A stretch of DNA of 64,000 nucleotides from Proteiniborus sp. GTDB taxonomy: Bacteria; Bacillota; Clostridia; Tissierellales; Proteiniboraceae. The stretch spans positions 41,197 to 105,196 of the forward strand of contig NZ_JAWRHZ010000060.1 of NCBI RefSeq assembly GCF_040308045.1, read 5' to 3'. Position 1 is the stretch's first letter, and each line of letters starts with the position of its first letter. Positions 18,287 to 49,646 of this stretch are shown here, piece by piece. The notes beneath the pieces were generated by a model that searched no databases, was not told where the DNA came from, and saw nothing but the letters and a program-made list of their open reading frames with translations. A program made the translations under genes and the position numbers.

Positions 18287-18898
18287 CTAGTCTTCAAAAG
18301 CCTCGCTAACTTTCCACTCTTTCCATACATTACCCACTAAATGTGGACCAGGTTTTAGAGTTGTCTTACCAGGTTTCCAACCTGAAGGTGTAACCTCTCC
18401 ACCTTTTGTAGCTCTAACAAGTTGAAAAGCTTTTATTTGTCTTATTGTTTCAGACACATTTCTGCCTACTGGTGGAGTAAGTACTTCAAATCCTTGAACT
18501 ATTCCATCTGGATCTATTATGAAACGTCCTCTAGTTTCTACACCACTATCCTCATCATAAATTCCATATAGCTTTCCTATATTACCATTTTGATCAGCTA
18601 CCATTGGGAATGGGATATCTTTTCCAATCATCTTAGATAATTCATGGTCATTCCACATTTTATGTACAAATGCAGAGTCTACACTTACAGAAAGAACTTC
18701 TACGCCTAATTCTTTTAATTCATTGTATTTTTCAGCAACTGCTGAAACTTCTGTAGCTCAGACAAAAGTAAAGTCTCCTGGGTAGAAGCAAAGTAGTACC
18801 CATTTTCCTTTATATTCTTCCAAATTAACATTTACGAACTTTCCATCAAAATATGCTGGTGCACTAAATAATGGTGCAGGTTTTCCTACTTTAATCAT
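18287..18898 (-). CDS. prxU: Selenocysteine-containing 2-Cys-type peroxiredoxin (Sec at the peroxidatic position, TGA at 18758-18760)
   Basis: Track ORFs 18758-19006 and 18287-18658 are in the same frame. Read-through gives ...[54 protein letters not shown]..., i.e. the Prx motif DFTFVCPTE with Cys replaced by TGA. The preferred start is ATG 18898 ([19 protein letters not shown] upstream), giving 203 codons. An alternative start is ATG 19006. Confidence 0.85.
18730..18747 (-). promoter_or_regulatory. SECIS-like hairpin downstream of the in-frame UGA
   Basis: The mRNA reads UGA-GCUACAGAAG-UUUCAGC-AGUU-GCUGAAA: a perfect 7-bp stem starting 10 nt after the UGA, with a G/U-containing tetraloop. 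Confidence 0.6.
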
Positions 18899-34468: not shown

Positions 34469-34480
34469 TTAGGTAAGCAA

Positions 34481-34504
34481 GGGGATAGATCAGAATCTAT
34501 CCCC
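34481..34504. terminator. Hairpin shared by convergent genes
   Basis: GGGGATAGAT-CAGA-ATCTATCCCC perfect 10-bp stem between the 34109-34468 (+) and 34505-35419 (-) genes. Confidence 0.75.
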
Positions 34505-35419
34505 TTAGTTCTTTTGAGTGTCATTAGGTGAAATTACTAAATTCCCTATTTCTGCATTTTTCCAAGCCTCAAATATAATTTCATTAAATTTATTCACATT
34601 CTTTATAACATAAGGAATATTGATTTTATAACTATTGGATGAATAAATATCTATCTTAAGAAATCCAGTTTTTAAATCATCTACAGTAGACACAACATTT
34701 TCAAAGTTTTCATCAAAAAGCTCAGGAATGCTAATATACACGGCAGCTACAATGTCCCAGTTGTAGAATCCTTTTGAGTTGTATAAGTCAATGAAATATT
34801 TGTACCATTCGTAGGATTTATTTTTTATATATCTATAAGCTTCTATAGTATCATCATTCATTAAACGCTCAAATTCTTTTTTTCCAAAAAAAGCCTGCAG
34901 GCATATATGTCCAGTTAATATAGTAACCTTGGCACCAGAGCTTAATACAGTATATGCAGCTAAAGCATCTGAAGAAAAATTCAGTTCATTCATGACCTTT
35001 CCTTCTATTATTAAGGGTTTAGTTATCCCACCCATTAGTACGATTTCCTTTACCTTTGTAAAGAAGTTGTTATCAAGTTGATAAGCTCCAAATAGATTAG
35101 TCAAAGAACCGGTAGCTAGAACCGTAATCTCTGAAGGAGCATTATTAACCATGTCTACTAGAAATTGTGATGCATTACTTTGTCTGTCATCTATAGATGC
35201 AGCTCCTTTAATTAGCGGTATATGGTTTATATTTAGTTCATCAAACATCTTTACAGTATTATTGTGAACATCCTCAATTGTACTGTTTCCAAAGGTTGTC
35301 GTAACTCCTATTAGCTCAATGTCACTTCTGCCAAGAAGGTACAAAAGAGCCAGACCATCATCCACATCTTTTCCATACAGTCCCATTGTGTTGTCACAAT
35401 CAAATATAACTTTTTTCAT
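34505..35419 (-). CDS. Nucleoside hydrolase (IUNH family)
   Basis: 304 aa. N-terminal FDCDNTMG...DVDDGLAL aspartate cluster. Confidence 0.85.
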   Translation of the reverse strand: MKKVIFDCDNTMGLYGKDVDDGLALLYLLGRSDIELIGVTTTFGNSTIEDVHNNTVKMFDELNINHIPLIKGAASIDDRQSNASQFLVDMVNNAPSEITVLATGSLTNLFGAYQLDNNFFTKVKEIVLMGGITKPLIIEGKVMNELNFSSDALAAYTVLSSGAKVTILTGHICLQAFFGKKEFERLMNDDTIEAYRYIKNKSYEWYKYFIDLYNSKGFYNWDIVAAVYISIPELFDENFENVVSTVDDLKTGFLKIDIYSSNSYKINIPYVIKNVNKFNEIIFEAWKNAEIGNLVISPNDTQKN

Positions 35420-35712: not shown

Positions 35713-35778
35713 TTTTTTATAACGAATAGAAAAGTTCTACTTTAATGACCTATATAGAAGAACTTTCTATGAGTAAGG
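35713..35778 (+). repeat. Partial copy (part 1) of the intergenic repeat element
   Basis: About 79% ungapped identity with 25186-25251 (shared TTTTTTATAA.GAA...CTTTA..., AAGAACTTTCTATGA). Ends 11 nt before the start codon of the ABC binding-protein gene and explains the spurious N-terminal extension in the track ORF. Confidence 0.5.
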
Positions 35779-35789: not shown

Positions 35790-37025
35790 ATGAAAAAACT
35801 TATATTAATTCTACTGACATTATCTTTATTACTTGTAGTAACTGCCTGTAGCAAGGATGATACTAAAGAGTATAATTTATCAGAAAAGAACTGGGACACA
35901 ATTTTAGAAGAAGCCAGAGGGACTACTGTGAACTTCTATGGATATGGTGGAGATCAAAAGACTAATAGTTGGATTGATGGATATTTAGCAAATAAATTAA
36001 AAGAAGAATACGATATAACCATAAATAGGGTAGGAATAAATATAGATGAAATACTAAATAGCCTACTTAATGAGAAGCAGCTAAATGTACAGAATGGAAA
36101 AATAGATGTAGTTTGGATAAATGGGGAAAATTTCTTTACTGCAAAGGAAAATAACCTACTATTTGGACCATTTACTGACAAGCTTCCAAACTTCAATAAA
36201 TATGTAGATAAGAATTCAGTTGAGGTAAAGTATGACTTTGGCTATCCGGTAGAAGGCTTAGAAGCACCCTTCGGGAAAGCTCAATTTGTAATGATATATG
36301 ATAGCGCTAAGGTAGATAATGTCCCTAGCAACCACCAAGAGCTACTACAATTTGCTAAGAACAATCCAGGTAAATTTACTTATCCTGCACCTCCAGATTT
36401 CACAGGTAGTGCTTTCGTGAGAAATATAATTTATGATATAGTAGGTCATGAACAATTTATGGATATGGAAGCAGATGAAGAAATAGTAAGAGAAGCAATT
36501 CGGCCAGCTATAGATTATCTTATTGAGTTAAAGCCGTATCTATGGAAGGAAGGAAATACTTATCCAGCAGAAAGTGGATTATTAAATAATATGTATTCAG
36601 ATAATGAGGTCATAATGACCATGTCATATAATCCGAATTCAGCATCAGGAAAAATTGAAACTGGAGAGTTTCCTAATACATCAAAGACATTTATCTTTGA
36701 AAAAGGTACCATAGGAAATACCCACTTTTTAGCGATACCATATAATGCTTCAAATAAATCAGGTGCTTTAGCAGTTATAGACTATATATTAAGTGTTGAC
36801 GCTCAGGCTTCTAAGTATGTGCCTAAAACATGGGGAGACCTTCCAGTACTAGATAATAACAAGCTAAATGATGAAGAAAAAGAAGTATTTAATAGCATAG
36901 AACTTGGAGAGGCAACTCTTCCACAGGATGTGCTTTTAAATCATAGGGTGCCAGAAATGCCAGCAGATTTAGTACCAATAATAGAAAAAATATGGATGGA
37001 AACTGTTCCTGAAAAGGATGAATAA
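35790..37025 (+). CDS. ABC importer substrate-binding lipoprotein, YnjB-like
   Basis: ATG 35790 follows AAGGGGGAAG; the track start is 35745. Signal and lipobox LLLVVTAC. About 411 aa binding protein; the YnjB likeness is recalled, not tested. Confidence 0.75.
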   Translation: MKKLILILLTLSLLLVVTACSKDDTKEYNLSEKNWDTILEEARGTTVNFYGYGGDQKTNSWIDGYLANKLKEEYDITINRVGINIDEILNSLLNEKQLNVQNGKIDVVWINGENFFTAKENNLLFGPFTDKLPNFNKYVDKNSVEVKYDFGYPVEGLEAPFGKAQFVMIYDSAKVDNVPSNHQELLQFAKNNPGKFTYPAPPDFTGSAFVRNIIYDIVGHEQFMDMEADEEIVREAIRPAIDYLIELKPYLWKEGNTYPAESGLLNNMYSDNEVIMTMSYNPNSASGKIETGEFPNTSKTFIFEKGTIGNTHFLAIPYNASNKSGALAVIDYILSVDAQASKYVPKTWGDLPVLDNNKLNDEEKEVFNSIELGEATLPQDVLLNHRVPEMPADLVPIIEKIWMETVPEKDE

Positions 37026-37027
37026 GA

Positions 37028-37891
37028 TTGGAAAAGAAGTTAAAACCATTTATTATGCTCATACCTGTTATGATAGTCGTATTAGGAATATTCTTATCAG
37101 GACTTGTTATGGCATTTATGCAAAGCTTAGGATACTTTAGAGCAATAGGCTTAACTGAATTTACACTTAAATATTATAAAGAAGTGCTGACTAGCCAAGG
37201 ATTTCTATCTTCTCTTGGCTTTAGCCTTTATATATCTATGGTATCTTCAATTATTGCAGTGTTTTTAGGTGTACTCTTGGCTTACTCTATTCTCAGAAGT
37301 AAACACAGAAAAGGCATAGAAGAGATGATTTACAAGCTTCCTATAGTTGTACCACATATTGTTGCAGCCTTACTAGTGTATAATATTTTATCTCAAAGTG
37401 GAATATTGCCAAGGCTTCTATACAGCATCGGAATCATAGAGGAGCAGTCTCAATTTCCTTCTTTACTATATGATAAAAATGGTATCGGAATAATAGCAGC
37501 ATATCTTTGGAAGGAGATACCTTTCGTAGCTATGGTTGTATATACAATACTAAGCAACATCAATAACAAACTGTCAGCTGTGGCTCATAATCTTGGAGCA
37601 AACAATAGGCAAGTATTTTTTCATGTATTGCTTCCATTAATTATGCCATCAATACTTTCTTCTTTTATAATAATATTTGCATTTTCATTTGGGGCATATG
37701 AGCTTCCTTTTCTATTGGGACCGACTACCCCAAAGGCTTTACCTGTTAAAGCATATATAGAATATACAAATCCAAGCTTAGCTAATAGACCTTATGCAAT
37801 GGTTATAAATATGATATTGACCTTTGTATCCTTAATTTTAGTTTGGTTATACAATAAATCCTTTGAGTTGATTTCTAAATATAATAGGTGA
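37028..37891 (+). CDS. ABC importer permease (first of two, YnjC-like halves)
   Basis: 287 aa, 6 TM, MalFG-type EAA-like loop. 2-nt gap after the binding-protein gene. Confidence 0.85.
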   Translation: MEKKLKPFIMLIPVMIVVLGIFLSGLVMAFMQSLGYFRAIGLTEFTLKYYKEVLTSQGFLSSLGFSLYISMVSSIIAVFLGVLLAYSILRSKHRKGIEEMIYKLPIVVPHIVAALLVYNILSQSGILPRLLYSIGIIEEQSQFPSLLYDKNGIGIIAAYLWKEIPFVAMVVYTILSNINNKLSAVAHNLGANNRQVFFHVLLPLIMPSILSSFIIIFAFSFGAYELPFLLGPTTPKALPVKAYIEYTNPSLANRPYAMVINMILTFVSLILVWLYNKSFELISKYNR

Positions 37892-37895
37892 TTTC

Positions 37896-38708
37896 ATGAG
37901 AGAAAAACGTAATATAATTTATAGATTATTAATGTATTCAATGATATTCATATTAGTATTACCATTACTTGTATTAATAATATGGAGCTTTTCTAAGAAC
38001 TGGTCATGGCCTAATATATTTCCTAGGGAAATAGGAATAAGAGGCTTAAAATACTTTTTTGACCCTAAAAGTAAGTCTTTTAGTACCCTATTAAGCAGTG
38101 TTTATTTATCAATGTTAGTCACTGTCATAACACTCATTATAACTTTACCTGCAGCTAAAGCATTAGCATTATATGAATTTAAAGGCAAGAAGATAGCAGA
38201 ATTTCTAATTCTTGCTCCATTAATGGTTTCTCCTGTAGCAGTTGCTATGGGTATTCACCTATCATTTATCAATCTAGGACTAGCTAATACCTTTATGGGA
38301 GTAGTCTTAGTACATTTGATTCCTTGTATACCATATAGTGTGCGGATATTAAAGAATGTATTTGAAATAACAGGAGAATCTATGGAAATGCAGGCAAGGG
38401 TTTTAGGGGCTAATCCATTTCAAGCCTTTACAAATATTACGTTACCAATTATAGCACCTGGTTTAGTATCGGCAGGAAGCTTGGTATTTACAGTATCCTT
38501 TAGTCAATATTTCTTAACCTTTTTAATAGGTGGAGGTAGAATAGTTACATTTCCAATGCTGATGTTTCCATTTGTACAAAGTGGAGATAGAATGATGGCA
38601 TCAGTTTATAGTGTTGTATTTATAATTACTACATTAATTTGCCTTCAAATAATGGAGAAGGTTATAAAAAAATATTATAAAAGTGGAAATTACTTTTTTA
38701 TGAATTAG
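37896..38708 (+). CDS. ABC importer permease (second)
   Basis: 270 aa, 6 TM. Confidence 0.85.
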   Translation: MREKRNIIYRLLMYSMIFILVLPLLVLIIWSFSKNWSWPNIFPREIGIRGLKYFFDPKSKSFSTLLSSVYLSMLVTVITLIITLPAAKALALYEFKGKKIAEFLILAPLMVSPVAVAMGIHLSFINLGLANTFMGVVLVHLIPCIPYSVRILKNVFEITGESMEMQARVLGANPFQAFTNITLPIIAPGLVSAGSLVFTVSFSQYFLTFLIGGGRIVTFPMLMFPFVQSGDRMMASVYSVVFIITTLICLQIMEKVIKKYYKSGNYFFMN

Positions 38709-38724
38709 ATAAGGGGAGTTTACT

Positions 38725-39768
38725 TTGTCACAGATAATATTAAAGAATATTATAAAATTTTTTGGGAATAAAAAAGTTCTTGATGATGTGAATCTAGTCG
38801 TAAAGGAAGGGGAAATGATATCATTATTAGGCCCTTCTGGCTGCGGCAAAACAACAACACTAAATATAGTAGCAGGTCTTCTAAAGCCAGATAATGGAGA
38901 TATACTCATCGGAGATAGCTCTATTTTAAATATACCAGTTGAAAAAAGAGGTGCAGTAATAGTATTTCAAGACTATCTATTATTTCCTCACTTAAATATA
39001 GCCCAAAATGTAGAGTTTGGACTTAAAATGGCAAAGGTAGATAAGGTTAAAAGACAAAATCAGGTAAAAAGAATGCTTGAGCTAGTTCAATTAGATGGTT
39101 ACGAAAAGAAATATCCAAATGAATTATCAGGGGGGCAAAAGCAAAGAGTTGCTCTTGCTAGAGCATTGGCAATAGAGCCAAAGGTACTTTTACTTGATGA
39201 GCCATTTTCTAATCTTGATATGAGATTAAGAGAGAATATGAGAGATTTTACTCTTCAAATACAGAGAAAGCTCAAAATAACTACTATATTAGTTACTCAC
39301 GATAAAGAAGAGGCACTTATGACATCTGATAAAATAGCTGTAATGCTTGATGGCAAGATAAGACAATTCGGAACTCCTACAGAGCTTTACCAAAGACCTA
39401 TATCTCCAGAAATAGCTGACTTTTTTGGTGAGAAGAATTACATTAGCGGATATATAAATGATGGTATGTTTGTTTCAGATATAGTTAGTGTTAAAACCGA
39501 ATACAATGAGCATTTATCAGTAAAGGCAATGATAAAACCTGAAGACATAGAATTACTTGAGCCTAGTAATGACACTGATATCATAGGTATAGTAAAGTCA
39601 AGGAAATATGCAGGAGATAGGATATATTATACAGTTATAGCCAATGACTTGGAGCTAAAGTGTATATCAGAGCCAAGGAAAATATATGATGTAGGAGATA
39701 AGGTTGAGGTTAATATAGATTTTAATAATGTAGTATTTTTTCCATTAGAGAAAGAAGTGATACTTTGA
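38725..39768 (+). CDS. ABC importer ATP-binding protein (PotA/FbpC-like, with a C-terminal regulatory/OB domain)
   Basis: GPSGCGKTT, LSGGQKQRVALARA, LLLDEPFSNLD. 347 aa. Confidence 0.85.
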   Translation: MSQIILKNIIKFFGNKKVLDDVNLVVKEGEMISLLGPSGCGKTTTLNIVAGLLKPDNGDILIGDSSILNIPVEKRGAVIVFQDYLLFPHLNIAQNVEFGLKMAKVDKVKRQNQVKRMLELVQLDGYEKKYPNELSGGQKQRVALARALAIEPKVLLLDEPFSNLDMRLRENMRDFTLQIQRKLKITTILVTHDKEEALMTSDKIAVMLDGKIRQFGTPTELYQRPISPEIADFFGEKNYISGYINDGMFVSDIVSVKTEYNEHLSVKAMIKPEDIELLEPSNDTDIIGIVKSRKYAGDRIYYTVIANDLELKCISEPRKIYDVGDKVEVNIDFNNVVFFPLEKEVIL

Positions 39769-40439
39769 TTTCAATAATAGTTCCTGTCCTTAATGAAGAA
39801 AAAACAATAGAGAATACTCTTACTAGGCTTTGCGATCTTCAGGGAGAAAAAGAGATAATTGTTGTAGACGGTGGAAGTAGCGACAATACAGTAAAGATAG
39901 CATCTAAATATGTTATTGTAATAGAAAGCCAAAAAGGTAGAGCAAAGCAAATGAACACTGGTGCTAGTGTAGCCAGAGGAAGCATATTATGGTTTGTTCA
40001 TTCAGATTCTGTAGTGTCAGAGGATTCTTTAAAAGGTATAGAAAATGCTATTAATAAAGGCTATATAGGAGGAGGATTTTCTCTATACTTTTATGACTAT
40101 GACACGAAGTTTATGAGATTTGTGTCTAAAAGCTCTACGTGGCGAGCCAAGTATTTAGGATTGTATTTTGGAGATCAAGGAGTATTTGTCAGAAAAGAAA
40201 TTTTCTATAAGCTAGGTGGATATAAAGAAATAGAGCTTATGGAGGACTGGGATTTGGCTAAGAGGCTAGGGAAAAAAGGTAAAATGAAAACCCTTAATAT
40301 TAAAATAGGAACCTCGGCAAGAAGATTCAAAACTGGAGGACAGCTTAGAACATTACTTCAAATGCATAAGCTTAAAGCATTATACATTCTAGGGGTATCC
40401 CCTTCAAAGCTTAACAAAATGTATAGGGAGGCAAGATAA
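39765..40439 (+). CDS. Family 2 glycosyltransferase of the TIGR04283 type ('rSAM/selenodomain-associated transferase 2', annotated as arsenosugar-biosynthesis GT)
   Basis: SIIVPVLNEEKTIENTL..., EIIVVDGGSSDNT, GRAKQMNTGA and WFVHSDS signatures as recalled for this family. TTG start overlaps the ATPase stop by 4 nt. Confidence 0.7.
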   Translation: MISIIVPVLNEEKTIENTLTRLCDLQGEKEIIVVDGGSSDNTVKIASKYVIVIESQKGRAKQMNTGASVARGSILWFVHSDSVVSEDSLKGIENAINKGYIGGGFSLYFYDYDTKFMRFVSKSSTWRAKYLGLYFGDQGVFVRKEIFYKLGGYKEIELMEDWDLAKRLGKKGKMKTLNIKIGTSARRFKTGGQLRTLLQMHKLKALYILGVSPSKLNKMYREAR

Positions 40440-41134
40440 TGAAGGCACTTATACTTATGACAAGAATACCTATACCTGGAAAGACTAAAACTAGGCTAAT
40501 GGATATCTTTACAGGAGAAAGATGTGCAGAGCTCCATGAATGCTTTTTATTGGACTTATTTAATATGTTTTATTATATAAAGAACCATGTTGATATTTTT
40601 CTAACATATACACCTGAAGGAAGTTTAAACATAATCGAAGATATAGTACCAGACTATATAAAATCCTTTCCTCAAATAGGTGAGGATTTAGGTGTTAGAA
40701 TGAGCAATGCCATCGAGCATGTGCTTAAATTAGGCTATAGTGAAGTAATACTTATAGGCTCAGATATACCAGATATACAGCCAGGCGAAATCCTAGAAGC
40801 TTTTAGTATTCTAAAAGACAATGATATATGCCTAGGACCTACCTTTGATGGTGGATATTATCTTATTGGAATGAAAAAGCCGTACAGAGAATTATTTAAT
40901 AGCAAGCTAAAATGGGGAAGAAATTCAGTTCTTGAGGGAACTATGGATATATCAAATAACCTTGGCTTAAGTATTGGGTTAGCAGCTAAGCATATGGATA
41001 TAGATACAAAAGAAGACTTATATACCTTTAAGGACAAGGTGGATAAAGGAGAATTTATGCATAAACCTATTCCTGAAAATACTATTAGCTATTTAAATAA
41101 ATGTTGGGGAGAAGAGAAATATGCTGAGAGATAG
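40439..41134 (+). CDS. DUF2064 / TIGR04282-type transferase ('rSAM/selenodomain-associated transferase 1')
   Basis: ALILMTRIPIPGKTKTRL N-terminus and GSDIPD, GPTFDGGYYLIG motifs. The ATG overlaps the upstream TAA by 1 nt. Confidence 0.7.
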   Translation: MKALILMTRIPIPGKTKTRLMDIFTGERCAELHECFLLDLFNMFYYIKNHVDIFLTYTPEGSLNIIEDIVPDYIKSFPQIGEDLGVRMSNAIEHVLKLGYSEVILIGSDIPDIQPGEILEAFSILKDNDICLGPTFDGGYYLIGMKKPYRELFNSKLKWGRNSVLEGTMDISNNLGLSIGLAAKHMDIDTKEDLYTFKDKVDKGEFMHKPIPENTISYLNKCWGEEKYAER

Positions 41135-42215
41135 ATTGAGAAAACAGATAAAAAAGTATCTAGTAAATGGCGGCTTACCAGCTTTCCATTGTGAGCTAAG
41201 CGAAGATTCTAATTGTCATTATAACCGCAACGAAGAACTTATATGTCATCTTGAACGAAGTGAGGGATCTCTTTTAACTGAGTTTGGAAACAACTATCAT
41301 GTAGACTTCCTAGCTCAAGGAGAGTACAACATAAATTTTTTAATAAAATCAAATGAGAAAAAATATGTATTTCGAGTAAACACAGGAAGTCAGCTACAGC
41401 TAGATAATCAAATTAAGTACGAATATGATGCATTAAAGACACTAGAGATAAGTAGAGTTACTCCAAAGGCTTTCTACGTGGATGATACCAAGAGCTTTTT
41501 TGACTATGGCATTTTAATAATGGAATTTTTAGAAGGCAGACCATTAAAATACAACAAAGACTTAAATAAGGCTGCAAGCATATTTGCTAGAATACACTCT
41601 TTAAAACTATCAGATAGAGATGCTAGTACCTTTATAATCGAAGATAATATTTTTAATGAAAGGATTCTAGAAAGTAGTAGGCTTTTAGAGGATTTTTTTG
41701 TATCAAACATTGTTTCTAAAGAACTTAAGAACTTTTTTGATAGCTTTTTAAACTGGGCTGAAAAGAATAAGCATAATGAGAAGTATTTCATAGAAAATAA
41801 ATGGCATGTAATAAATAATACTGAAGTAAATTCACATAATTTCATAATAGGTGATACACACAGCTATCTAATAGATTGGGAAAAACCGGTTATTAGTGAC
41901 CCTTGTCAAGATTTGACTCAGTTTCTATCACCTACAACTACTCTTTGGAAGACTGAGTATGTATTAAGTAAAGAAGAAAAGGAAAACTTCTTTAAAACAT
42001 ATATTGATGGTCTTAATAGGAAAGACAATAACATTAGGGAAAGAGTTCATTTGTACACTCCATACCTATATCTAAGGGCGTTATCCTGGTGCGCTTATGC
42101 TTATGTAGAGTATAATAAGCCTGATAAGAATATAAAGAATATGGATACGTATAAGAAGATTTTGGATTATCTTGATATAGATTTTATGAAAAGATTACTT
42201 AAGCATTATTTTTAG
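41121..42215 (+). CDS. Phosphotransferase (APH/choline-kinase-like) family protein with a non-canonical catalytic loop
   Basis: 364 aa. LIDWEKPVISDPCQDL matches the kinase IDWE...D motif. The usual HxDxxxxN loop reads NTEVNSHN. 14-nt overlap with the upstream gene. Confidence 0.55.
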   Translation: MLRDRLRKQIKKYLVNGGLPAFHCELSEDSNCHYNRNEELICHLERSEGSLLTEFGNNYHVDFLAQGEYNINFLIKSNEKKYVFRVNTGSQLQLDNQIKYEYDALKTLEISRVTPKAFYVDDTKSFFDYGILIMEFLEGRPLKYNKDLNKAASIFARIHSLKLSDRDASTFIIEDNIFNERILESSRLLEDFFVSNIVSKELKNFFDSFLNWAEKNKHNEKYFIENKWHVINNTEVNSHNFIIGDTHSYLIDWEKPVISDPCQDLTQFLSPTTTLWKTEYVLSKEEKENFFKTYIDGLNRKDNNIRERVHLYTPYLYLRALSWCAYAYVEYNKPDKNIKNMDTYKKILDYLDIDFMKRLLKHYF

Positions 42216-42305
42216 CCTATAGATTTGACATATTATCAAGTCCATAGGTTTTCTTATATATATATTCATGGCTTCAAAATAACGTAGACTAGCAATATAA
42301 ATTAT

Positions 42306-42333
42306 ATCTATAGTTTAAAGCAACACTATAGAT
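42306..42333. promoter_or_regulatory. Inverted repeat (candidate operator) upstream of the rhodanese operon
   Basis: ATCTATAG-N12-CTATAGAT, about 90 nt upstream of the 42422 start. Confidence 0.3.
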
Positions 42334-42421
42334 AATTGCAATTACAATTTTTAAAGCTTGTATGTTAAAATCATATCGGAGTTAATATAATATAAAAACT
42401 GAAACTGGGGGAGAATTTACG

Positions 42422-43714
42422 ATGAAAAAATTATTATTAATATTCGTAGTAATGTTATCATTAGTATTAGTGGCTACTGGTTGTTCAAATAGTGCCGATA
42501 CAGAAGCCAAAAAGGAGTATAATTATTATACCGCAAAGGAAACGAAGAAAGCGATTGAAAATGGTGATGATATCATATTACTTGATATACAAGTAAAAGA
42601 AGAATGGGATGCTCACCACATTAAAGGAGCTATACCAACTCATGCTTATCCAGTAAAAACTGACGAAGAAAAAGCAAAGCTAGATGCTGCTTTACCACAG
42701 TTAGAGGGAGAAAAACCTATTATTGTAATCTGTCCTGGTGGTGCTGGTGGTGCTACTAGAACCATTGATTATCTTCAAACAAAAGGAATTAGTGCCGACA
42801 GGTTATTTATATTAGAAAATGGTCAAAGCAAATGGCCGTATGATGAATTATTAGAAGATAAAGAGACAGCAGAAGAAACTATAGAATTCGTAGACACTAG
42901 CTATATTGTTGATGTTGATTGGTTAAAAGAAAACTTAGGTAGAGAAGATATACTTATTCTAGATGCAAGAGGAGCAGATGCTTATGCCAAAGGACATATA
43001 CCAGGTTCAATTGCTGTAATGTGGCAAAACTTTGCTGATATGTCAGGAGCACCTGGTGAAAATCTTAATTGGGGGACTGTACTTGAACCAAAGGCTTTAT
43101 CAGAAAAGCTATCTGAATTTGGAATAAGCAAGGAAAAAGAAATTGTAGTATACACTAGCACAAATGGTGGCTGGGGTGAAGATGGAAGAATAGTTTGGAT
43201 GCTTAATAGAGCAGGTTTTGATAATGTAAAGATGCTAGACGGTGGATTTGAATACTGGAAAGCTAACAAATATGAAGTATCTAAGGATATAATTGAGCCA
43301 ACTGCTGTAGCTGTTGAAGTAACAGCATTAGATAATTCAACTAATATTGAAACTGGAGAATTTGCAAGTAAAATAGGCAAAGTAGTCATAATAGATGTTA
43401 GAGAAAAAGACGAATATGAAGGAGCACAAAAATTTGGTGAAGTAAGGGGCGGACACTTACCAGGAGCCATAAATATAACATTTAATAAATTCTTAAATGA
43501 AGATGGTACACTAAAAACTGCACAAGAAATTAAGGCTATCCTTGATGAAAATGGAATTGAAAAGGATGATGAAATAATAACATATTGTACTGCGGGTATT
43601 CGTTCTGCTCACATGCAGGTAGTCCTATCTATGATGGGATACGAGAATGCAAAAAATTATGATGCTAGTTTTCATGCTTGGGCAGGAAGTGCAGATTTAG
43701 AATTACAAAAATAA
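42422..43714 (+). CDS. Secreted lipoprotein with three rhodanese modules (sulfurtransferase, YnjE-like)
   Basis: Lipobox LVATGC. Cys loops VICPGGAGGATR (module 1) and YCTAGIRSAH (module 3); module 2 lacks a Cys. Confidence 0.8.
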   Translation: MKKLLLIFVVMLSLVLVATGCSNSADTEAKKEYNYYTAKETKKAIENGDDIILLDIQVKEEWDAHHIKGAIPTHAYPVKTDEEKAKLDAALPQLEGEKPIIVICPGGAGGATRTIDYLQTKGISADRLFILENGQSKWPYDELLEDKETAEETIEFVDTSYIVDVDWLKENLGREDILILDARGADAYAKGHIPGSIAVMWQNFADMSGAPGENLNWGTVLEPKALSEKLSEFGISKEKEIVVYTSTNGGWGEDGRIVWMLNRAGFDNVKMLDGGFEYWKANKYEVSKDIIEPTAVAVEVTALDNSTNIETGEFASKIGKVVIIDVREKDEYEGAQKFGEVRGGHLPGAINITFNKFLNEDGTLKTAQEIKAILDENGIEKDDEIITYCTAGIRSAHMQVVLSMMGYENAKNYDASFHAWAGSADLELQK

Positions 43715-43743
43715 GAAGGCTAACCCTAAAGGTGTGAATTATA

Positions 43744-44457
43744 TTGAAAAAAATATTGGATTTTTTGAAAAAAATTAAAAAGCCAACTTGGATTAAGCTG
43801 GCAGTAATAATAGCTTTGATTTGTGCTTATTTATTTATTACTCCAGTAAAGGTAGCCATAAATAGAGCTGTATTTATTTTTAGCATGCTAGATGTAGAGG
43901 CAATAAAGGGATATATATTATCCTTTGGAATATGGGCACCGGTAGTATCCTTTTTACTAATGATATTTCAGTCAATAGCTGCACCGCTACCAGCATTTTT
44001 GATAACATTTGCCAATGCAGCTTTATTTGGATGGGTAAAGGGAGCAATACTTTCATGGACATCTTCCATGGCGGGGGCTGTTTTGTGCTTCTATATTGCT
44101 AGAATATATGGTAGAACTACTGTTGAAAGGCTTACAAATAGATTTGCTCTGCAAGAGGTAGATAAATTTTTTGATAAATATGGGAATTATGCGATTTTAA
44201 TTGCTAGATTACTTCCTTTTGTATCTTTTGATATTGTCAGCTATGCTGCTGGGCTTACTTCAATGAGTCTATGGTCTTTTTTATGGGCAACAGGTCTCGG
44301 GCAACTTCCAGCAACTATTGTGTATTCATACGTGGGAGGAATGTTAACTGGCGGAGTTAAAACTTTTGTAACAGCATTACTTATACTATTCTCATTGAGC
44401 ATATTAATATTCTTAATTAAGAAATTATGGGATGAGAAAAACAAGAAAACTGTTTAG
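43744..44457 (+). CDS. TVP38/TMEM64 (DedA/SNARE-associated) family membrane protein
   Basis: 237 aa, multi-TM, ARLLPFVSFDIVSYAAGLT signature. Confidence 0.8.
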   Translation: MKKILDFLKKIKKPTWIKLAVIIALICAYLFITPVKVAINRAVFIFSMLDVEAIKGYILSFGIWAPVVSFLLMIFQSIAAPLPAFLITFANAALFGWVKGAILSWTSSMAGAVLCFYIARIYGRTTVERLTNRFALQEVDKFFDKYGNYAILIARLLPFVSFDIVSYAAGLTSMSLWSFLWATGLGQLPATIVYSYVGGMLTGGVKTFVTALLILFSLSILIFLIKKLWDEKNKKTV

Positions 44458-44576
44458 TTAAAAGAGCTAGGGGTTGTTTAAAAGAAGCAATCCCTTTATC
44501 TATGCAGTAGCTAGCATTCAGAGAGTAGGCTTACTCTGAACTTGTATTTAGAGTTAATTAATGAAGGGTGTTTAAA

Positions 44577-45692
44577 ATGATTATTAGTGACAAAACAATG
44601 AAAATAATCAAAGAAGAGCAAAAATGCATAGGATGTAATGCCTGTATGAAAGGATGCCCTATGCTTGATAAACTCTGTGATTCACCAAAGGTACTGCTTA
44701 AGGACTTATTAGAAACTGGAACCTTTGATTATAAACTACCTTATTCCTGTATGCTTTGCGGGTACTGTACTAAAGTATGTCCTAAAGGAGTAGACCTAAA
44801 GAGCTTATTCTTAGAGCTTAGAAGAGATACAGTTAATCAAACAAATGGAAAGCTGCCTAAAGACCTTGGAACAAGTACAGTAGACTTCCATCAGAAGTTT
44901 AGCTTTTCAAAGCTATTTACATCAGGTATACAAAATCTACAATCTGATACTATATTTTTTCCAGGCTGTGCACTTATGTCATATAGCTTTGAAATAGTGC
45001 AGAAAACTTACAATTATCTTGGAGAAAAAATTCCTGGTATAGGTATATATAATAAATGCTGTGGTAAGCCTACAAGCTTTATGGGTAAGGAAGGGAAATT
45101 TAAAGAATATTTCTCAATGCTAGAAAATGAGTTTCAGAGTAAAAAGGTTAAGAAAGTGATTACTGGATGTCAAAATTGTTTTATGACAATATCTAATAAT
45201 AGCAATGCTGTAGAAGTAGTATCTCTATGGGAGGTGCTATCCTCTATAGGTGTTCCAGAAAATAGAAAAGGCATAGGAGAAAATATTGAGAATGAATTTA
45301 CTATCCATGACCCCTGTCCTACTAGAAATGTAAATGTAATTCATGAATCTGTTAGAAATATCATTGTTCAATTAGGACTCAAAGTAAAAGAAATGAGATA
45401 CAACCGTGGAAGGACTTTATGCTGTGGATCTGGAGGCATGGTTTCTGTAACTCAAAACCATATATCAAAGACACATACTGAAATAAGAGCTAATGAAGCA
45501 AGCACAGATTATATCATCACATATTGTCAGGAATGTGTAGAGTCAATGCGAAGAGGCGGAAAGAGCTCTTTTCATATACTTGACTTGCTTTTTAATGAGA
45601 AATTCGAAGATATGGAGCAAAAAAATAATTCAACATTAGAAAAATGGCTAAATAGGTATAAGGGAAAAAAGATTAAAGCTACATCCACTTAG
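44577..45692 (+). CDS. Fe-S oxidoreductase with two 4Fe-4S ferredoxin motifs and two CCG domains (HdrD/GlpC-like)
   Basis: CIGCNACMKGCP and CMLCGYCTKVCP, then NKCCGKP...GCQNC and LCCGSGG...YCQEC. ATG 44577 sits 6 nt after GAAGGGTG; the track start GTG 44568 lies inside the SD. Confidence 0.75.
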   Translation: MIISDKTMKIIKEEQKCIGCNACMKGCPMLDKLCDSPKVLLKDLLETGTFDYKLPYSCMLCGYCTKVCPKGVDLKSLFLELRRDTVNQTNGKLPKDLGTSTVDFHQKFSFSKLFTSGIQNLQSDTIFFPGCALMSYSFEIVQKTYNYLGEKIPGIGIYNKCCGKPTSFMGKEGKFKEYFSMLENEFQSKKVKKVITGCQNCFMTISNNSNAVEVVSLWEVLSSIGVPENRKGIGENIENEFTIHDPCPTRNVNVIHESVRNIIVQLGLKVKEMRYNRGRTLCCGSGGMVSVTQNHISKTHTEIRANEASTDYIITYCQECVESMRRGGKSSFHILDLLFNEKFEDMEQKNNSTLEKWLNRYKGKKIKATST

Positions 45693-45711
45693 TTATGTTA
45701 GGAAGTGAATT

Positions 45712-46377
45712 ATGAAGAATAAAAAGAATGCATTTAGATTGATAGTTTTAATTATATTAGTAATTGCGACTGCAGTGTTACTTAATAAATATAATTTTCT
45801 AAAAGGATATGGTCCCAATGAAATAAAGGAATATATTCAAGGTAAAGGGGCTATGGCTCCAATTATATATGTAGTAGCTTTAACTCTGTTACCTTTGCTG
45901 CTATTTCCTGATTCAGTTTTAGTTATTGCAGGAGGGATGATATTTGGTCTTTGGGAAGGAGTGGTCCTTACATCTATAGGATCCTTATTAGGTGGAATTA
46001 TAGCGTTTATTATTTCAAGAGTATTAGGAAAAGCAGTAGTTAAAAAGATTATAAAAAGAGATATAGTTTTTTTTGATAATAAAGGTACAAAAAGTGCATT
46101 TTTATTGATATTGATGCTAAGATTGATACCATTATTTCCATTTAAGATAGTAAGCTATAGTGCAGGTCTTACAGATATGAAACTGAGAGATTTTTCTTTA
46201 GCAACTGTTATTGGTTCATTACCAGGAATAATAGTATATTCAAACCTTGGGGATAAGACTACAAAATTAGGAACTACAGAATTCTATATTTCCATAGGAT
46301 TAGTAGTATTTCTGTTTGCAGTTTCATTAATAATAAAAAAGGTACTTCAACAAAAGGATAAAAGCCCTGGCTGGTAG
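45712..46377 (+). CDS. TVP38/TMEM64 family membrane protein (second copy)
   Basis: 221 aa, RLIPLFPFKIVSYSAGLT signature. Confidence 0.8.
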   Translation: MKNKKNAFRLIVLIILVIATAVLLNKYNFLKGYGPNEIKEYIQGKGAMAPIIYVVALTLLPLLLFPDSVLVIAGGMIFGLWEGVVLTSIGSLLGGIIAFIISRVLGKAVVKKIIKRDIVFFDNKGTKSAFLLILMLRLIPLFPFKIVSYSAGLTDMKLRDFSLATVIGSLPGIIVYSNLGDKTTKLGTTEFYISIGLVVFLFAVSLIIKKVLQQKDKSPGW

Positions 46378-46553
46378 ATTTCACATATAGTGAGTTCCCT
46401 AGCAGGGCTAAAGTTTTCGAAAGATAAGCATTTAAAAATTTTATAAAGTTATAGACACTTATTATTTTTTTCAGTAATCATTTTATTCATGATTTATTTA
46501 TGCTAATATATTTTTGGTCTCACAATAATTATTTAAAAAAGAGGAGCGATAAA

Positions 46554-47957
46554 ATGTTAATGAACTTAAGAAAAGCAGCTTTGCCAATTATTTTATTATT
46601 ATTAATATCATTAAGCTTATCTGCTTGTTCAAATAAGTCAGTAGAAACAGAAAATAAACAGGTTGTTGAACAACAAGATAAAGAAGAGGAAAAAGGAATT
46701 CAATCAATTTCTACAGAAGATTTAAAGGAAAAGCTAAATGATAACTCATGGGTAATTGTTGATACCCGAATCAATGATGCTTACAATGGTTGGAAACTTG
46801 AAGGGGTAAAAAGAGGTGGACATATAGAGGGAGCAGTAGACTTTTCTGCTAATTGGTTAAGCACAGAAGTAGAAAACAAAGATGCTATTTTAAGTGAAGC
46901 AATTAATGCTAAAGGTATCGATCCATCTAAAAATATAGTACTATATGATGCTAATGGGGAAGATGCTTTAAAGGTTGCAGAATACCTAAAAGATAAAGGA
47001 TATGAAAATCTATATAATTATAACGTAAAAGAGTGGACTGAAGACGAAAGTCTTCCTATGGAAATCTACGAAAACTATAAATTGATAGTACCTGCTAGTA
47101 TAGTTAAGGATATACTAGATGGCAAAACACCAGAAACATTTGAAGATTCTACACAAATAAAGATAGTTGAGGCAAGCTGGGGCGAAGAAGATACATCATA
47201 TGCAAATGGGCATGTACCTACAAGCTTCCATATAAATACTGATTGGATAGAACCACCACCAGCTTGGATGTTAGCTGATGACGCAACACTGACAGAATTT
47301 GCACTAAACAATGGATTTACAAAGGATGATACTGTAATAGTAACTGGTGAAGCTCAAATGGCAGCTTATCGTGTAGCTACAGCACTAAGATATATTGGAG
47401 TTAAAGATGTAAGAGTATTAAATGGTGGTTTAGGAGCTTGGATATCTGCAGGATATGATGTTGAAACAGAAAGCCATAAACCAACTCCAGTTACTGATTT
47501 TGGAGCTAAAATACCAGTAAATCCAGATTTAATTGATACTATAGAAGAGCTAAAAGTAAGCTTAACAAAACCTAATGAATTTATATTAGTAGATAATCGT
47601 ACTTGGGAAGAACATATAGGAAAAAGTTCTGGTTACTCTTATCATGATTTGAAAGGTCGTATACCTGGTTCAGTATTTGGATATGCTGGAAAGACTGACT
47701 CCAACTCATTAGATTACTATCGTAATATAGATAATACTATGCGTAATGCCGATGAAATATTAGCTATGTGGAAAGAGTATGGAATAGATACAAACAGACA
47801 TCTTTCATTTATGTGTGGAAGTGGATGGCGTGCAGCAGAAGTACTATATTATGCTCAAGTGATGGGTCTTGAGAATACATCTCTATATAGCGATGGTTGG
47901 ATTGGCTGGAGTAATAACCCAGAAAATCCTGTAGAAACTGGAGAGCCAGCAAACTAA
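46554..47957 (+). CDS. Secreted lipoprotein with three rhodanese modules, YnjE-type active-site loop
   Basis: AGAGGAG lies 7 nt before ATG 46554; the track start is 46500. Lipobox LSLSAC. Only the last module has a catalytic Cys (FMCGSGWRAAE), resembling the CGTGWR loop recalled for E. coli YnjE. Confidence 0.8.
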   Translation: MLMNLRKAALPIILLLLISLSLSACSNKSVETENKQVVEQQDKEEEKGIQSISTEDLKEKLNDNSWVIVDTRINDAYNGWKLEGVKRGGHIEGAVDFSANWLSTEVENKDAILSEAINAKGIDPSKNIVLYDANGEDALKVAEYLKDKGYENLYNYNVKEWTEDESLPMEIYENYKLIVPASIVKDILDGKTPETFEDSTQIKIVEASWGEEDTSYANGHVPTSFHINTDWIEPPPAWMLADDATLTEFALNNGFTKDDTVIVTGEAQMAAYRVATALRYIGVKDVRVLNGGLGAWISAGYDVETESHKPTPVTDFGAKIPVNPDLIDTIEELKVSLTKPNEFILVDNRTWEEHIGKSSGYSYHDLKGRIPGSVFGYAGKTDSNSLDYYRNIDNTMRNADEILAMWKEYGIDTNRHLSFMCGSGWRAAEVLYYAQVMGLENTSLYSDGWIGWSNNPENPVETGEPAN

Positions 47958-47958
47958 A

Positions 47959-48432
47959 ATGTATAGAGAAAAAAACGCAAAGGGTATAATTAAGAGAGTA
48001 ATATATGCCATAGTAGCGCTTTTACAAGTAGCCTTGATAGTTGCTGTATTTGTAATAAACAATCTGACTACAAAAAAGGCAGGGGTAATGAGACATGTTT
48101 ATTCTAGGAGACTACAATATGAACAGAGCATATTTACTCAAGTTAATTTGATAAAGCATAATATTATACTAATTGTATTATGCATTCTGTTTGCTGTTCT
48201 ATTATTCTATGCTATCAAGAGAAGAAGAAAAATATTTACCGGAATCCAGATAACAATAGGGCTTATAATTAGCTTGTTGACGGCTATTGCCATTAATAGT
48301 AAGTGTTTTATAGACATGCTAGCATATCCTTACTATATCATAGCATTTGAACTAGCGTTATTGATTCAGATTATTGTTATCATAATAGTAATATTACAGG
48401 TCTACTTTAGACAATATAATAAGAGATATTAA
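47959..48432 (+). CDS. Hypothetical 4-TM membrane protein
   Basis: 157 aa. Starts 1 nt after the rhodanese stop. No motif recognised. Confidence 0.5.
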   Translation: MYREKNAKGIIKRVIYAIVALLQVALIVAVFVINNLTTKKAGVMRHVYSRRLQYEQSIFTQVNLIKHNIILIVLCILFAVLLFYAIKRRRKIFTGIQITIGLIISLLTAIAINSKCFIDMLAYPYYIIAFELALLIQIIVIIIVILQVYFRQYNKRY

Positions 48433-48448: not shown

Positions 48449-48488
48449 CCTGCTATATAATCAGTACTGATAATATAGCAGGTGTTTT
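48449..48488 (+). terminator. Intrinsic terminator ending the 42.4-48.4 kb unit
   Basis: CCTGCTATAT...ATATAGCAGG long stem followed by TGTTTTT. Confidence 0.8.
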
Positions 48489-48566
48489 TATGTTAGATTC
48501 TCTATACTTTTTATTCTTTATTTGATAGACTAATATTTAGAGACTCAAAATAAAAGAGGTGAAATA

Positions 48567-49112
48567 ATGAAAAAGTATTTAGAAATGTTCTCAGTTTTTT
48601 TCAAAATAGGTGCCTTTACAATAGGTGGAGGGTATGCCATGGTTCCGCTTATTGAAGCTGAAGTTGTAGATAAGAAAAAATGGATTGAAAAGGATGAATT
48701 CGTAGATACTCTTGCATTAGCCCAATCTGCACCAGGACCTATAGCCGTAAACACAGCTGTGTTTGTAGGCTTTAAAATGGATAGATATAAGGGTGCTTTT
48801 TTTACTACATTAGGAGCAATACTGCCATCATTTTTAATTATTTTAGCTATTGCAATGTTTTTTAAAGAAATAAAAGACCTTAAAGCAGTAGAAAGTGCAT
48901 TTAAAGCCATAAGACCAGCGGTAGTAGCCCTGATAGCTACATCAGTTATTAGTTTATCTAAAAGCTCAAAGCTAAAGGGAAAGGCCTTTATTATACCTAT
49001 AGTAGTTGCAGCGTGTGTTACTTTTTTAAAAATAACTCCTATTTTATTTATTATAATAGCAGTAATTGGTGGAAATCTTTATATGGCTAAAAAAGGAGGT
49101 AGCAAACAGTGA
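48567..49112 (+). CDS. chrA: Chromate transporter (CHR family, half-size subunit)
   Basis: 181 aa, FTIGGGYAMVPLI motif. Confidence 0.8.
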   Translation: MKKYLEMFSVFFKIGAFTIGGGYAMVPLIEAEVVDKKKWIEKDEFVDTLALAQSAPGPIAVNTAVFVGFKMDRYKGAFFTTLGAILPSFLIILAIAMFFKEIKDLKAVESAFKAIRPAVVALIATSVISLSKSSKLKGKAFIIPIVVAACVTFLKITPILFIIIAVIGGNLYMAKKGGSKQ

Positions 49113-49633
49113 TATACCTAAGACTCTTTATAACATTTTTTAAAATAGGACTTTTTAGCTTTGGTGGAGGATATGCCATGCTACCTTTGATACAAACTGA
49201 AGTAGTAGATGTAAACAATTGGCTTAGTGTCAGTGAGTTTACAGATATAGTTGCCATATCACAGGTTACTCCTGGACCTATTGCAATAAACAGTGCTACA
49301 TATATAGGCTATACAGTTACGAATAGTGTTTTAGGCTCTGCTTTTGCAACATTAGGAGTTGCAATGCCTTCTATAATTATTATGCTAATAATATGTAACT
49401 TCTTTTTTAAATTTAAAAACAACAAATACGTAGAAAATGCTTTTGTTGGACTTAGACCAGTAGTAGTGGGGCTTGTATTGTCAGCGATGCTACTTTTAAT
49501 CAATAAAGAGACATTTATTGACTACAAAAGTATTATATTCTTTGCATTAGCTTTCTTTGCAACCTATAAATATAAGATTCATCCAATATTACTTACATTG
49601 GTTGCAGGAATTTTAGGATATATTATTTACTAA
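49109..49633 (+). CDS. chrA: Chromate transporter (CHR family, second half-size subunit)
   Basis: 174 aa, FSFGGGYAMLPLI motif. 4-nt overlap with the first half. Confidence 0.8.
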   Translation: MIYLRLFITFFKIGLFSFGGGYAMLPLIQTEVVDVNNWLSVSEFTDIVAISQVTPGPIAINSATYIGYTVTNSVLGSAFATLGVAMPSIIIMLIICNFFFKFKNNKYVENAFVGLRPVVVGLVLSAMLLLINKETFIDYKSIIFFALAFFATYKYKIHPILLTLVAGILGYIIY

Positions 49634-49646
49634 GGAGGAGTGAATT

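Follow-up and report, generated by a model that had tools for sequence, protein, structure and literature searches.

What is accomplished by a gene cluster in which an ABC importer, a small transferase, a kinase, two rhodanese lipoproteins, two DedA-type membrane proteins and an iron-sulfur (Fe-S) protein are encoded one after another? The question was raised by a 64-kb window of a Proteiniborus sp. (Tissierellales), the window being the whole stretch of DNA that was analysed, in which 13 open reading frames (ORFs), all on one strand, span positions 35745/35790 to 48432. An earlier note on this DNA had likened these genes to an expanded E. coli ydjXYZ-ynjABCDE system. In E. coli, ydjXYZ-ynjABCD, ynjE and ynjF are among the conserved y-genes without an assigned physiological role. 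Judged by homology, the cluster and a divergently transcribed nucleoside hydrolase gene are together a Firmicute version, here called type A, of the E. coli ydjXYZ-ynjABCD/ynjE/ynjF neighbourhood, and the system to which both belong is widespread, modular and mostly an anaerobe-associated envelope system. A survey of related loci showed that the transferase, kinase and hydrolase genes form a module that is an alternative to YnjF and is coupled to the DedA, rhodanese and CCG genes. The cluster is a variant of a catalogued, functionally uncharacterised system; none of the literature searched treats the whole system, and TIGR04282/3, DUF2064, ynjB/ynjBCD and ydjY were found as incidental mentions only.

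Homology to the E. coli ydj-ynj genes

Families were assigned to the window ORFs by Pfam and NCBIfam profile searches, and all the family calls of the earlier note held, as did its description of 13 ORFs, a 206-nt gap and a terminator at 48449. The first gene, on the plus strand like the other twelve, encodes a substrate-binding lipoprotein (SBP; 35790-37025) that matches the YnjB family NF008633/PRK11622 with 494 bits against a cutoff of 203, and its start at 35790 is preceded by a GGGGG ribosome-binding site. Two permeases (37028-37891 and 37896-38708; PF00528, BPD_transp_1) and a YnjD-like ATPase with a C-terminal TOBE_2 domain (38725-39768; PF00005 and PF08402) follow. By BLASTP, the SBP is 35% identical to YnjB (3e-73) and the ATPase 39% identical to YnjD, and in BLAST searches the permeases weakly match both halves of the fused E. 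coli YnjC. Among the genes beyond the gap, the first COG0398-type DedA/TVP38 membrane protein (VTT1, 43744-44457; PF09335) is the orthologue of YdjZ and 58% identical to it over its full length by BLASTP (58-62% range), the second (VTT2, 45712-46377; PF09335) about 31% identical to YdjX/YdjZ, and the second three-domain rhodanese lipoprotein (Rhd2, 46500-47957, with a likely start at 46554 or 46560) 34% identical to YnjE over its full length (1e-73).

The E. coli K-12 gene map gives the order ydjX-ydjY-ydjZ-ynjA-ynjB-ynjC-ynjD followed by ynjE, while ynjF is encoded by the other strand (b1750-b1758), in agreement with the earlier note. The parallel drawn there goes beyond shared domain types and rests on sequence homology. 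The ydjXYZ-ynjABCD operon and ynjE are FNR-activated (PMC3688515). The window shares with E. coli a YnjB-type SBP, a YnjC-homologous permease, a YnjD ATPase next to the SBP, two COG0398 DedA proteins, an exported three-domain rhodanese, and an Fe-S or Cys-rich protein encoded between the two DedA genes. It differs in that a non-homologous CCG/HdrD-like protein is encoded at the ydjY position, two genes encode the permease, the ATPase carries a TOBE domain in addition, a four-transmembrane (4-TM) protein and a further rhodanese lipoprotein, of TST type, are present, and the nucleoside hydrolase, the kinase and the TIGR04282 and TIGR04283 proteins stand in place of YnjF. No match to YdjY (NF040466) was found in the window by tblastn with E. 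coli, Niallia and Clostridium queries, nor was any match to YnjA (AhpD/CMD-like) or YnjF found there. Three statements of the earlier note need amending in this light. It had called the set duplicated, but E. coli also has two DedA genes, and the two window rhodaneses are 23% identical and belong to different subfamilies. It had described a transferase/kinase module joined to the E. coli set; the module is present, with the families named, but it replaces YnjF rather than being added. Lastly, its 13-gene boundary left out the divergent hydrolase gene at 34505-35419 (minus strand), a conserved part of the system.

The two rhodaneses are best described separately. Rhd1 (42422-43714) is a lipoprotein with three PF00581 domains, whose C-terminal tandem is of SseA/TST type with the active loop CTAGIR and whose best PDB matches are tandem SseA/TST-type sulfurtransferases. 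Rhd2 retrieved EanB, the anaerobic ergothioneine synthase of Chlorobium limicola (PDB 6H98, 6KTV), with 3.5e-76 and 38% identity, slightly better than YnjE (3e-69) in the same PDB search. Like EanB, it is a three-domain rhodanese that keeps the equivalents of Tyr353 and of Cys412 in its CG[TS]GWR loop (CGSGWR here). Unlike EanB, which is cytoplasmic, Rhd2 is a surface lipoprotein with Ser for Thr414, and Pfam scans covering most of the ORFs from 28.8 to 56.5 kb found no EanA/EgtD-type methyltransferase near the cluster. YnjE and all ABC-linked Rhd2 homologues keep the catalytic Tyr and the CG[ST]GWR loop, and all of them carry lipoprotein or signal sequences; the Cys/Tyr/Thr-Ser residues do not discriminate EanB-type from YnjE-type proteins, and the Rhd2 substrate therefore need not be hercynine. 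Besides EanB itself, we know of no acceptor for any YnjE/EanB-like rhodanese. The lipoboxes of the SBP (VTAC), Rhd1 (ATGC) and Rhd2 (LSAC) are all legible. YnjE is located in the periplasm and performs poorly as a thiosulfate/mercaptopyruvate sulfurtransferase (PMC10215317). A further exported lipoprotein of rhodanese-like type, linked to the chemistry of chalcogen oxyanions, is ExtH (NF040901) of the Geobacter selenite/tellurite reduction operon; Rhd1 and its homologues differ from it in giving only partial matches (25-91 bits, cutoff 200), and the window differs in having no ExtI-type porin and no cytochrome context.

About 27% of bacterial DedAs are COG0398 proteins, for which to our knowledge no substrate is known. 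VTT1 and VTT2 scored 44 and 24 bits against the UptA equivalog (the COG0586 DedA flippase of undecaprenyl phosphate, UndP), well below its cutoff of 250. COG0398 DedA proteins have been described as not being UndP flippases, whose residues they lack, as resembling eukaryotic scramblases, and often being fused to disulfide reductases (PMC10127716). In Clostridium tagluense (locus L004, 15237-18833), a second set of VTT, YdjY, small protein and pyridine nucleotide-disulfide oxidoreductase genes lies 4 kb from the importer cluster, which echoes the DedA-disulfide reductase fusions of the literature. Between VTT1 and VTT2, the cytoplasmic HdrD-like protein (44568-45692; two PF02754 and Fer4 families) carries two [4Fe-4S] clusters and two CCG domains and matches positions 298-657 of NF045663 'diclust_near_Sec', its C-terminal half, with 256 bits against a cutoff of 530. 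Full-length members of NF045663, a pyridine nucleotide-disulfide oxidoreductase/dicluster family, fuse a flavoprotein half to this dicluster and CCG half. The last gene (47959-48432) encodes the 4-TM protein, 157 aa with four hydrophobic segments, which has no Pfam or NCBIfam match; in Neobacillus niacini (L051), a homologue with 41% identity is encoded after that of Rhd2.

The conservation of VTT1 to E. coli, of the SBP to Niallia (75% identical) and of Rhd2 to Neobacillus (71-73% identical) is high. Because such cross-phylum identities are unusual, they suggest that the modules may be under strong constraint and/or have been horizontally transferred.

Alternative modules around the importer

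The survey was anchored on an alignment of four YnjB-type SBPs, which was scanned against one genome per GTDB species. This retrieved SBP relatives in at least 587 stretches/species, and the best 80 loci were taken with 10-kb flanks. In a separate search, relatives of the window SBP filled more than 7113 clusters at 90% identity. Neighbours were called by tblastn searches using proteins of the window and of E. coli as queries, as well as by de novo ORF clustering; counts are given over 79 loci, and 45 loci had full 10-kb flanks. The loci come from Clostridia, Bacilli, Negativicutes, Spirochaetota, Desulfobacterota, Anaerolineae and Eggerthellaceae, at least five phyla.

Both analyses returned a recurring toolbox around the importer, with the SBP as the hub of the system. 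VTT genes were the neighbours found most often (36/79 loci), followed by the APH-type kinase (28/79), which among cytoplasmic enzymes is the commonest partner of the SBP, a YnjF-like CDP-alcohol phosphatidyltransferase (27/79), a rhodanese (25/79), the IU-type nucleoside hydrolase (IUNH; 25/79), the CCG protein (22/79), GT2 (19/79) and DUF2064 (14/79). LysR, CoA-disulfide-reductase-rhodanese and GltD-like flavoprotein genes were each present in 9 loci, split YedE and YdjY genes in 8 each, a PrdB-like selenoprotein in 7, TusA/YedF-like and flippase-like genes in 6 each, and ArsR in 5.

Loci with the hydrolase, kinase, TIGR04282 and TIGR04283 genes, as in the window, were termed type A, and those with a YnjF-like gene, as in E. 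coli, type B. The YnjF-like gene (27 loci) and the kinase gene (28 loci) never occurred together (Fisher 2.5e-7, a descriptive value that ignores shared ancestry), and no locus combined the YnjF-like gene with IUNH (27 and 25 loci) or with GT2 (27 and 19 loci). The YnjF-like proteins belong to PF01066 and are nearest to phosphatidylinositol-phosphate synthases. On a neighbour-joining tree of the SBPs the two types interleave; one module has therefore replaced the other repeatedly, at what the pattern indicates to be the same functional position. Among loci with full flanks, VTT, CCG or rhodanese genes accompanied 12 of 13 GT2 loci and 15 of 17 YnjF loci, as against 1 of 12 loci with neither module.

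The earlier note would have been refuted if the two halves of the cluster were never conserved together; they are in fact co-conserved elsewhere, often rearranged. In Tissierella praeacuta (L007), Rhd1-VTT-CCG-VTT genes lie upstream of the SBP-to-kinase genes, in Anaerococcus the two halves form blocks on opposite strands, and Oribacterium, Halanaerobiales and Eggerthellaceae have other orders of both halves. Because the same families adjoin YnjB-type SBPs in dozens of species and in varied order, the arrangement is far beyond chance.

The proteins of the type-A module were then considered individually. The IUNH encoded at 34505-35419 matches PF01156 (9e-39), scores far under every NCBIfam equivalog cutoff, and is 60% identical to the hydrolase adjoining the Niallia cluster. 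Its family adjoins the SBP in 15 of the 19 GT2 loci and never together with YnjF, and in Halodesulfovibrio the SBP and IUNH genes overlap with no permease nearby (L081, 9986-12272). The N-terminal Asp motif of the IUNH holds an insertion (DCDNTMGLYGKDVDDG), and the protein belongs to a divergent subfamily tightly linked to YnjB-type SBPs.

The GT-A (GT2) transferase (39765-40439) matches TIGR04283 with 242 bits (cutoff 182); sources name its family 'arsenosugar biosynthesis glycosyltransferase' or 'rSAM/selenodomain-associated transferase 2'. The adjacent DUF2064 protein (40439-41134), of CofC-like nucleotidyltransferase fold, matches TIGR04282 with 189 bits (cutoff 134), as well as PF09837, PF01983 and PDB 3CGX (9e-25). 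The two thus resemble the pair linked to ArsS (TIGR04167), first named 'rSAM/selenodomain-associated transferases 1 and 2' and now 'arsenosugar biosynthesis glycosyltransferases', in being above the hidden Markov model cutoffs, adjacent and in the same order. They differ from it in their partners, which are the ABC importer, the kinase and the nucleoside hydrolase together with sulfur- or selenium-handling proteins.

The kinase (41121-42215; PF01636) probably starts about 30 codons downstream of its called start; its 944 homologues are mostly 333-337 aa long. Its AlphaFold2 model (predicted local distance difference test, pLDDT, 84) retrieved choline kinases, APH(2'')/(9) and LicA at the top of the Foldseek results, with template modelling (TM) scores of 0.5-0.65. 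A role as an anomeric ribose kinase was considered and dropped, as methylthioribose kinase was absent from the Foldseek top 50 and nothing specific supported it. The catalytic loop (residues 233-240) reads NTEVNSHN, as against the Brenner motif H-x-D-x-x-x-x-N, and is invariant in 30 homologues; in 7S3L the aligned stretch is HCDVNHNN, and the protein retains the IDWE motif for metal binding.

Known salvage routes offer a comparison for this module. LicA/LicC/LicD for phosphocholine and AmgK/MurU for N-acetylmuramic acid are kinase-nucleotidyltransferase-transferase salvage routes, and the one-step alternative is a CDP-alcohol phosphatidyltransferase such as Pcs. The window is like them in the sequence of import, phosphorylation by an APH/choline-kinase fold, nucleoside diphosphate activation and transfer, and in the single CDP-alcohol phosphatidyltransferase that is the alternative in other genomes. 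It differs in that its nucleotidyltransferase is of the CofC/DUF2064 type and its transferase a small GT-A protein, neither homologous to LicC, LicD or MurU, and in the NxE catalytic loop of its kinase.

A proposed pathway and its alternatives

The sister loci carry a sulfur and selenium signature. In Clostridia, type-A loci typically read IUNH<, YedE_C, TusA-like, YedE_N, SBP, permease, permease, ATPase, GT2, DUF2064, kinase, LysR<, GltD-like, CCG and rhodanese. Such loci share a split YedE, a YedF/TusA-like protein and a LysR matching NF040786 with the YedE, YedF and LysR_Se set, whose members comparative genomics has put forward as candidate genes of selenium metabolism (Lin et al. 2015, PMC5322559). 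The YedE halves are nearest to NF033796 'selenium metabolism membrane protein YedE/FdhT', below its cutoff, with TsuA thiosulfate transporters next and nearly equal. The LysR neighbours score 228-299 bits against NF040786 'selenium metabolism-associated LysR' (cutoff 250), three of six above the cutoff and three just below, and each about 90-155 bits over the next family. The GltD-like protein matches the N-terminal half of NF045663 and is encoded by a separate gene upstream of the CCG gene. In Bacillaceae versions there are genes for a TIGR00374 flippase-like protein and for a PrdB-like protein whose reading frame contains a TGA (NPG-U-YICH). In Niallia sp. (L002, 3639-4397) the latter lies inside the cluster, adjoining the flippase-like protein and a protein of about 83 aa; it is also present in L008, L051, L054, L056, L058 and L060, scores 179 bits against a PrdB cutoff of 300, and appears to be an undescribed selenoprotein subfamily. 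The Proteiniborus sp. of the window itself uses selenium, as the earlier note had stated: the peroxiredoxin encoded at 18287-18898 (minus strand) reads FTFV-U-ATE at the peroxidatic Cys position, with the TGA at 18758-18760, and the organism therefore decodes selenocysteine.

The earlier note had further proposed sulfur or selenium chemistry and had named arsenic among the options to check. Its sulfur and selenium part is backed by the sister loci (LysR_Sec_metab, split YedE/YedF-like proteins, PrdB-like selenoprotein), while the arsenic option is unsupported by any ArsS or radical SAM gene. It was right that the two transferase families are tied by name to radical SAM and selenium, through the JGI name 'rSAM/selenodomain-associated transferase'; together with 'diclust_near_Sec', 'rhoda_near_glyco' and 'ydjY_domain', this is among the database labels already touching the system, and the names of TIGR04282 and TIGR04283 are based on neighbourhood only. 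That persulfide or selenium chemistry feeds a sugar- or phospho-conjugate, as also suggested there, is still something that we infer.

Beyond the homology, composition and co-conservation described above, we infer an order of reactions, a lipid nature for the product and a preference between sulfur and selenium, and give a probability of roughly 0.45 to an importer-fed conjugation pathway coupled to sulfane sulfur or selenium chemistry at the cell surface. In this pathway, unit 1 (35790-42215) would import a small organic compound, possibly a riboside or an alcohol, which would then pass in the cytoplasm from the nucleoside hydrolase to the choline-kinase-fold kinase, the CofC-like nucleotidyltransferase (TIGR04282) and the GT-A transferase (TIGR04283), that is, through a salvage-type route in which it is phosphorylated, nucleotidyl-activated and transferred. 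Since a single YnjF-like CDP-alcohol phosphatidyltransferase fills the same position elsewhere, the product would by analogy most likely be a conjugate bearing the imported head group, and plausibly a lipid-anchored one. Unit 2 (42422-48432) would supply chalcogen chemistry at the membrane: the TST-type surface lipoprotein Rhd1 may pick up sulfane sulfur or selenium, the YnjE/EanB-type surface lipoprotein Rhd2, with a Cys/Tyr pair used in C-S bond formation, may pass it to an organic acceptor, both DedA/VTT proteins may shift the conjugate between the membrane faces, and the HdrD-like CCG protein may reduce the resulting (hetero)disulfide or selenosulfide in the cytoplasm. The net role would be acquisition and trafficking of sulfane sulfur or selenium via an organic carrier, with selenium favoured because of the LysR_Se, YedE/YedF-like and selenoprotein neighbours in the sister loci.

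A fuller version, which we consider unlikely as a whole, would be a carrier cycle for chalcogen import, and thus a previously unrecognised trait of selenium or sulfane-sulfur utilisation. A lipid-anchored or exported organic acceptor, built by YnjF or by the kinase, TIGR04282 and TIGR04283 proteins, would be exposed on the outer face by the COG0398 DedA proteins and loaded with sulfur or selenium by the surface rhodaneses, the EanB/YnjE-type enzyme making a C-S/C-Se or S-Se bond outside the cell. The YnjB importer would recapture the loaded head group, or it would be flipped back, and cytoplasmic CCG/flavoprotein or PrdB-like selenoprotein reductases would free sulfide or selenide before the carrier is re-activated. 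If true, such a cycle would give functions at once to ydjXYZ-ynjABCDEF, the COG0398 DedA proteins, the YnjE-type rhodaneses and TIGR04282/3, and selenium as its cargo would mean a new route of selenium acquisition, a process poorly understood in bacteria. The locus and its relatives place the y-genes, the COG0398 DedA proteins, the YnjE-type rhodaneses and TIGR04282/3 in one modular system; with its two interchangeable conjugation modules and its sulfur and selenium signature, this brings several orphan families under one testable hypothesis, for which E. coli can serve as the genetic model.

Several observations weigh against the proposed conjugation pathway or its selenium version. A lipid acceptor is conjectural, since GT2 lacks membrane segments and its closest structures in the PDB are generic, and with NxE instead of HxD in its loop the kinase is only putatively active. 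Nor do sequence and structure comparisons separate the ligand classes of the SBP: its PDB search gave no match and its profile search only weak PotD/agropine-type matches, and its AlphaFold2 model (pLDDT 86) led Foldseek to cluster-D SBPs for 2-aminoethylphosphonate, iron, polyamines, sugar phosphates and pyridoxal phosphate alike. An Rfam scan of 33.5-49.5 kb (E<=1) found no riboswitch or leader RNA and thus no ligand clue. YedE, YedF, LysR_Se, the GltD-like flavoprotein half and YdjY are all absent from the window, and the Fisher tests of exclusivity ignore phylogenetic non-independence. Only 1 of 80 loci (L017) has SelD encoded within 10 kb of the SBP gene, and the preference for selenium therefore depends on the sister loci and on the names of curated families, names that were given through guilt-by-association; moreover, all the families of the signature also handle sulfur. 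The 13 genes probably make up at least two transcription units, because terminator-like hairpins follow the kinase stop (42214-42250, dG -13.6, z -4.6, then UUUUCUU) and lie between the VTT1 and CCG genes. In E. coli K-12 (L001/L086, 1,833,401-1,848,008), selD, the gene for selenophosphate synthetase, lies 5.6 kb beyond ynjF, which may be coincidence; SelD linkage, amounting to this proximity and L017, was judged too weak and was not used as evidence for selenium.

If surface Rhd2 instead acted like EanB, it could transfer sulfur or selenium from polysulfide onto a carbene-forming heterocycle (imidazolium, thiazolium or a purine riboside) outside the cell, the YnjB-type SBP and its ABC transporter would import the product, and the hydrolase, kinase, nucleotidyltransferase and GT2 would salvage it to a cofactor-like molecule, with no lipid involved. 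The resemblance of Rhd2 to EanB described above fits such a route, as does the sulfurisation of heterocycles that the Seebeck laboratory has proposed for EanB-like enzymes and YnjE (PMC9516567); the tight link of the SBP to the nucleoside hydrolase, with the overlapping pair in Halodesulfovibrio, points the same way, and the many invariant aromatic and acidic residues of the SBP, in an alignment judged by eye, would suit a cationic ligand. It leaves unexplained, however, the exclusivity with a CDP-alcohol phosphatidyltransferase and the constant presence of DedA/VTT or flippase-like proteins, a YnjE/EanB-type rhodanese is present in only a minority of the surveyed loci, no EgtD/EanA-type methyltransferase appeared near the cluster in the Pfam scans, and the Tyr/Cys pair, being a family trait shared with YnjE, is not proof of EanB chemistry; we would give this route low odds. 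An alternative in line with the exclusivity and the membrane proteins is scavenging of an envelope lipid head group with no acquisition of sulfur or selenium, in which an imported alcohol or sugar would be built into a membrane lipid, like choline via Pcs or LicABC, the DedA proteins would distribute the lipid, and the rhodaneses and CCG protein would merely protect or remodel it. The choline-kinase-like fold of the kinase, the VTT and flippase-like neighbours and the DedA literature (PMC10127716) agree with this. It offers no account of the consistent sulfur- and selenium-specific partners, namely exported rhodaneses of two kinds and the split YedE/YedF-like, CoA-disulfide-reductase-rhodanese, LysR_Sec_metab and PrdB-like selenoprotein neighbours; we regard it as improbable.

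The database names of the two transferases suggest an organoarsenical, arsenosugar-type pathway, in which 5'-arsinoyl-adenosine, imported or made locally, would be cleaved, activated and glycosyl-transferred. Both proteins are above the cutoffs of the 'arsenosugar biosynthesis glycosyltransferase' families, the chain of nucleoside hydrolase, kinase, nucleotidyltransferase and glycosyltransferase is what such a pathway needs, and ArsR/SmtB regulators occur in 5 loci. Against it, a CxxxCxxC motif screen of window ORFs of at least 90 aa, which is not an HMM search, found no ArsS or radical SAM candidate, and none adjoined GT2 in any GT2-bearing locus; the same Pfam scans, covering most of the ORFs from 28.8 to 56.5 kb, found no ArsM, methyltransferase or ars gene in the cluster or its flanks, and no ArsR-type match was found in the window. 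With the recurrent partners being sulfur and selenium proteins and the family names themselves drawn from neighbourhood, an arsenical pathway is very improbable. We give hardly more than nominal credence to a chance juxtaposition of an ordinary polyamine-type importer operon and an unrelated sulfurtransferase/DedA operon, which synteny largely refutes. The SBP is annotated as a 'putative spermidine/putrescine transport system substrate-binding protein', a terminator-like hairpin and the 206-nt gap part the two halves, and the importer stands alone in 12 of the 45 full-flank loci; but the halves are co-located in many genera in varied orders and orientations, the enrichment (12/13 and 15/17 against 1/12) is strong, and E. 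coli has both in one FNR-activated operon. The rest of our confidence, beside the proposed conjugation pathway and these four alternatives, goes to something else.

Transcription signals and flanking genes

The second unit is closed by an intrinsic terminator (48449-48490, plus strand), consisting of a hairpin at 48449-48482 (dG -19.5 kcal/mol, z -4.6) and a U-run after it, UGUUUUUAU. Between the kinase and Rhd1 genes, the 206-nt gap (42216-42421) holds a perfect 9-bp inverted repeat upstream of Rhd1, ATCTATAGT-N10-ACTATAGAT (42306-42333), which may be an operator. The half-site ACTATAGAT was considered as an operator motif and set aside, since it is over-represented in the window yet not cluster-specific. 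The stable hairpin between the VTT1 and CCG genes (44469-44495, dG -16.6, z -3.6) has a weak U-tail and may be an internal attenuator or RNA-processing site.

At the other end, a strong 12-bp hairpin (34479-34506) lies between a convergent DUF2680 gene and the IUNH gene, and is probably a bidirectional terminator that forms the left border of the system. Outside these limits, the flanking genes have a thiol or oxyanion flavour, with an M17 leucyl aminopeptidase encoded upstream (28808-30298) and a split chromate-transporter pair and a gamma-glutamyltranspeptidase encoded downstream (48567-51263).

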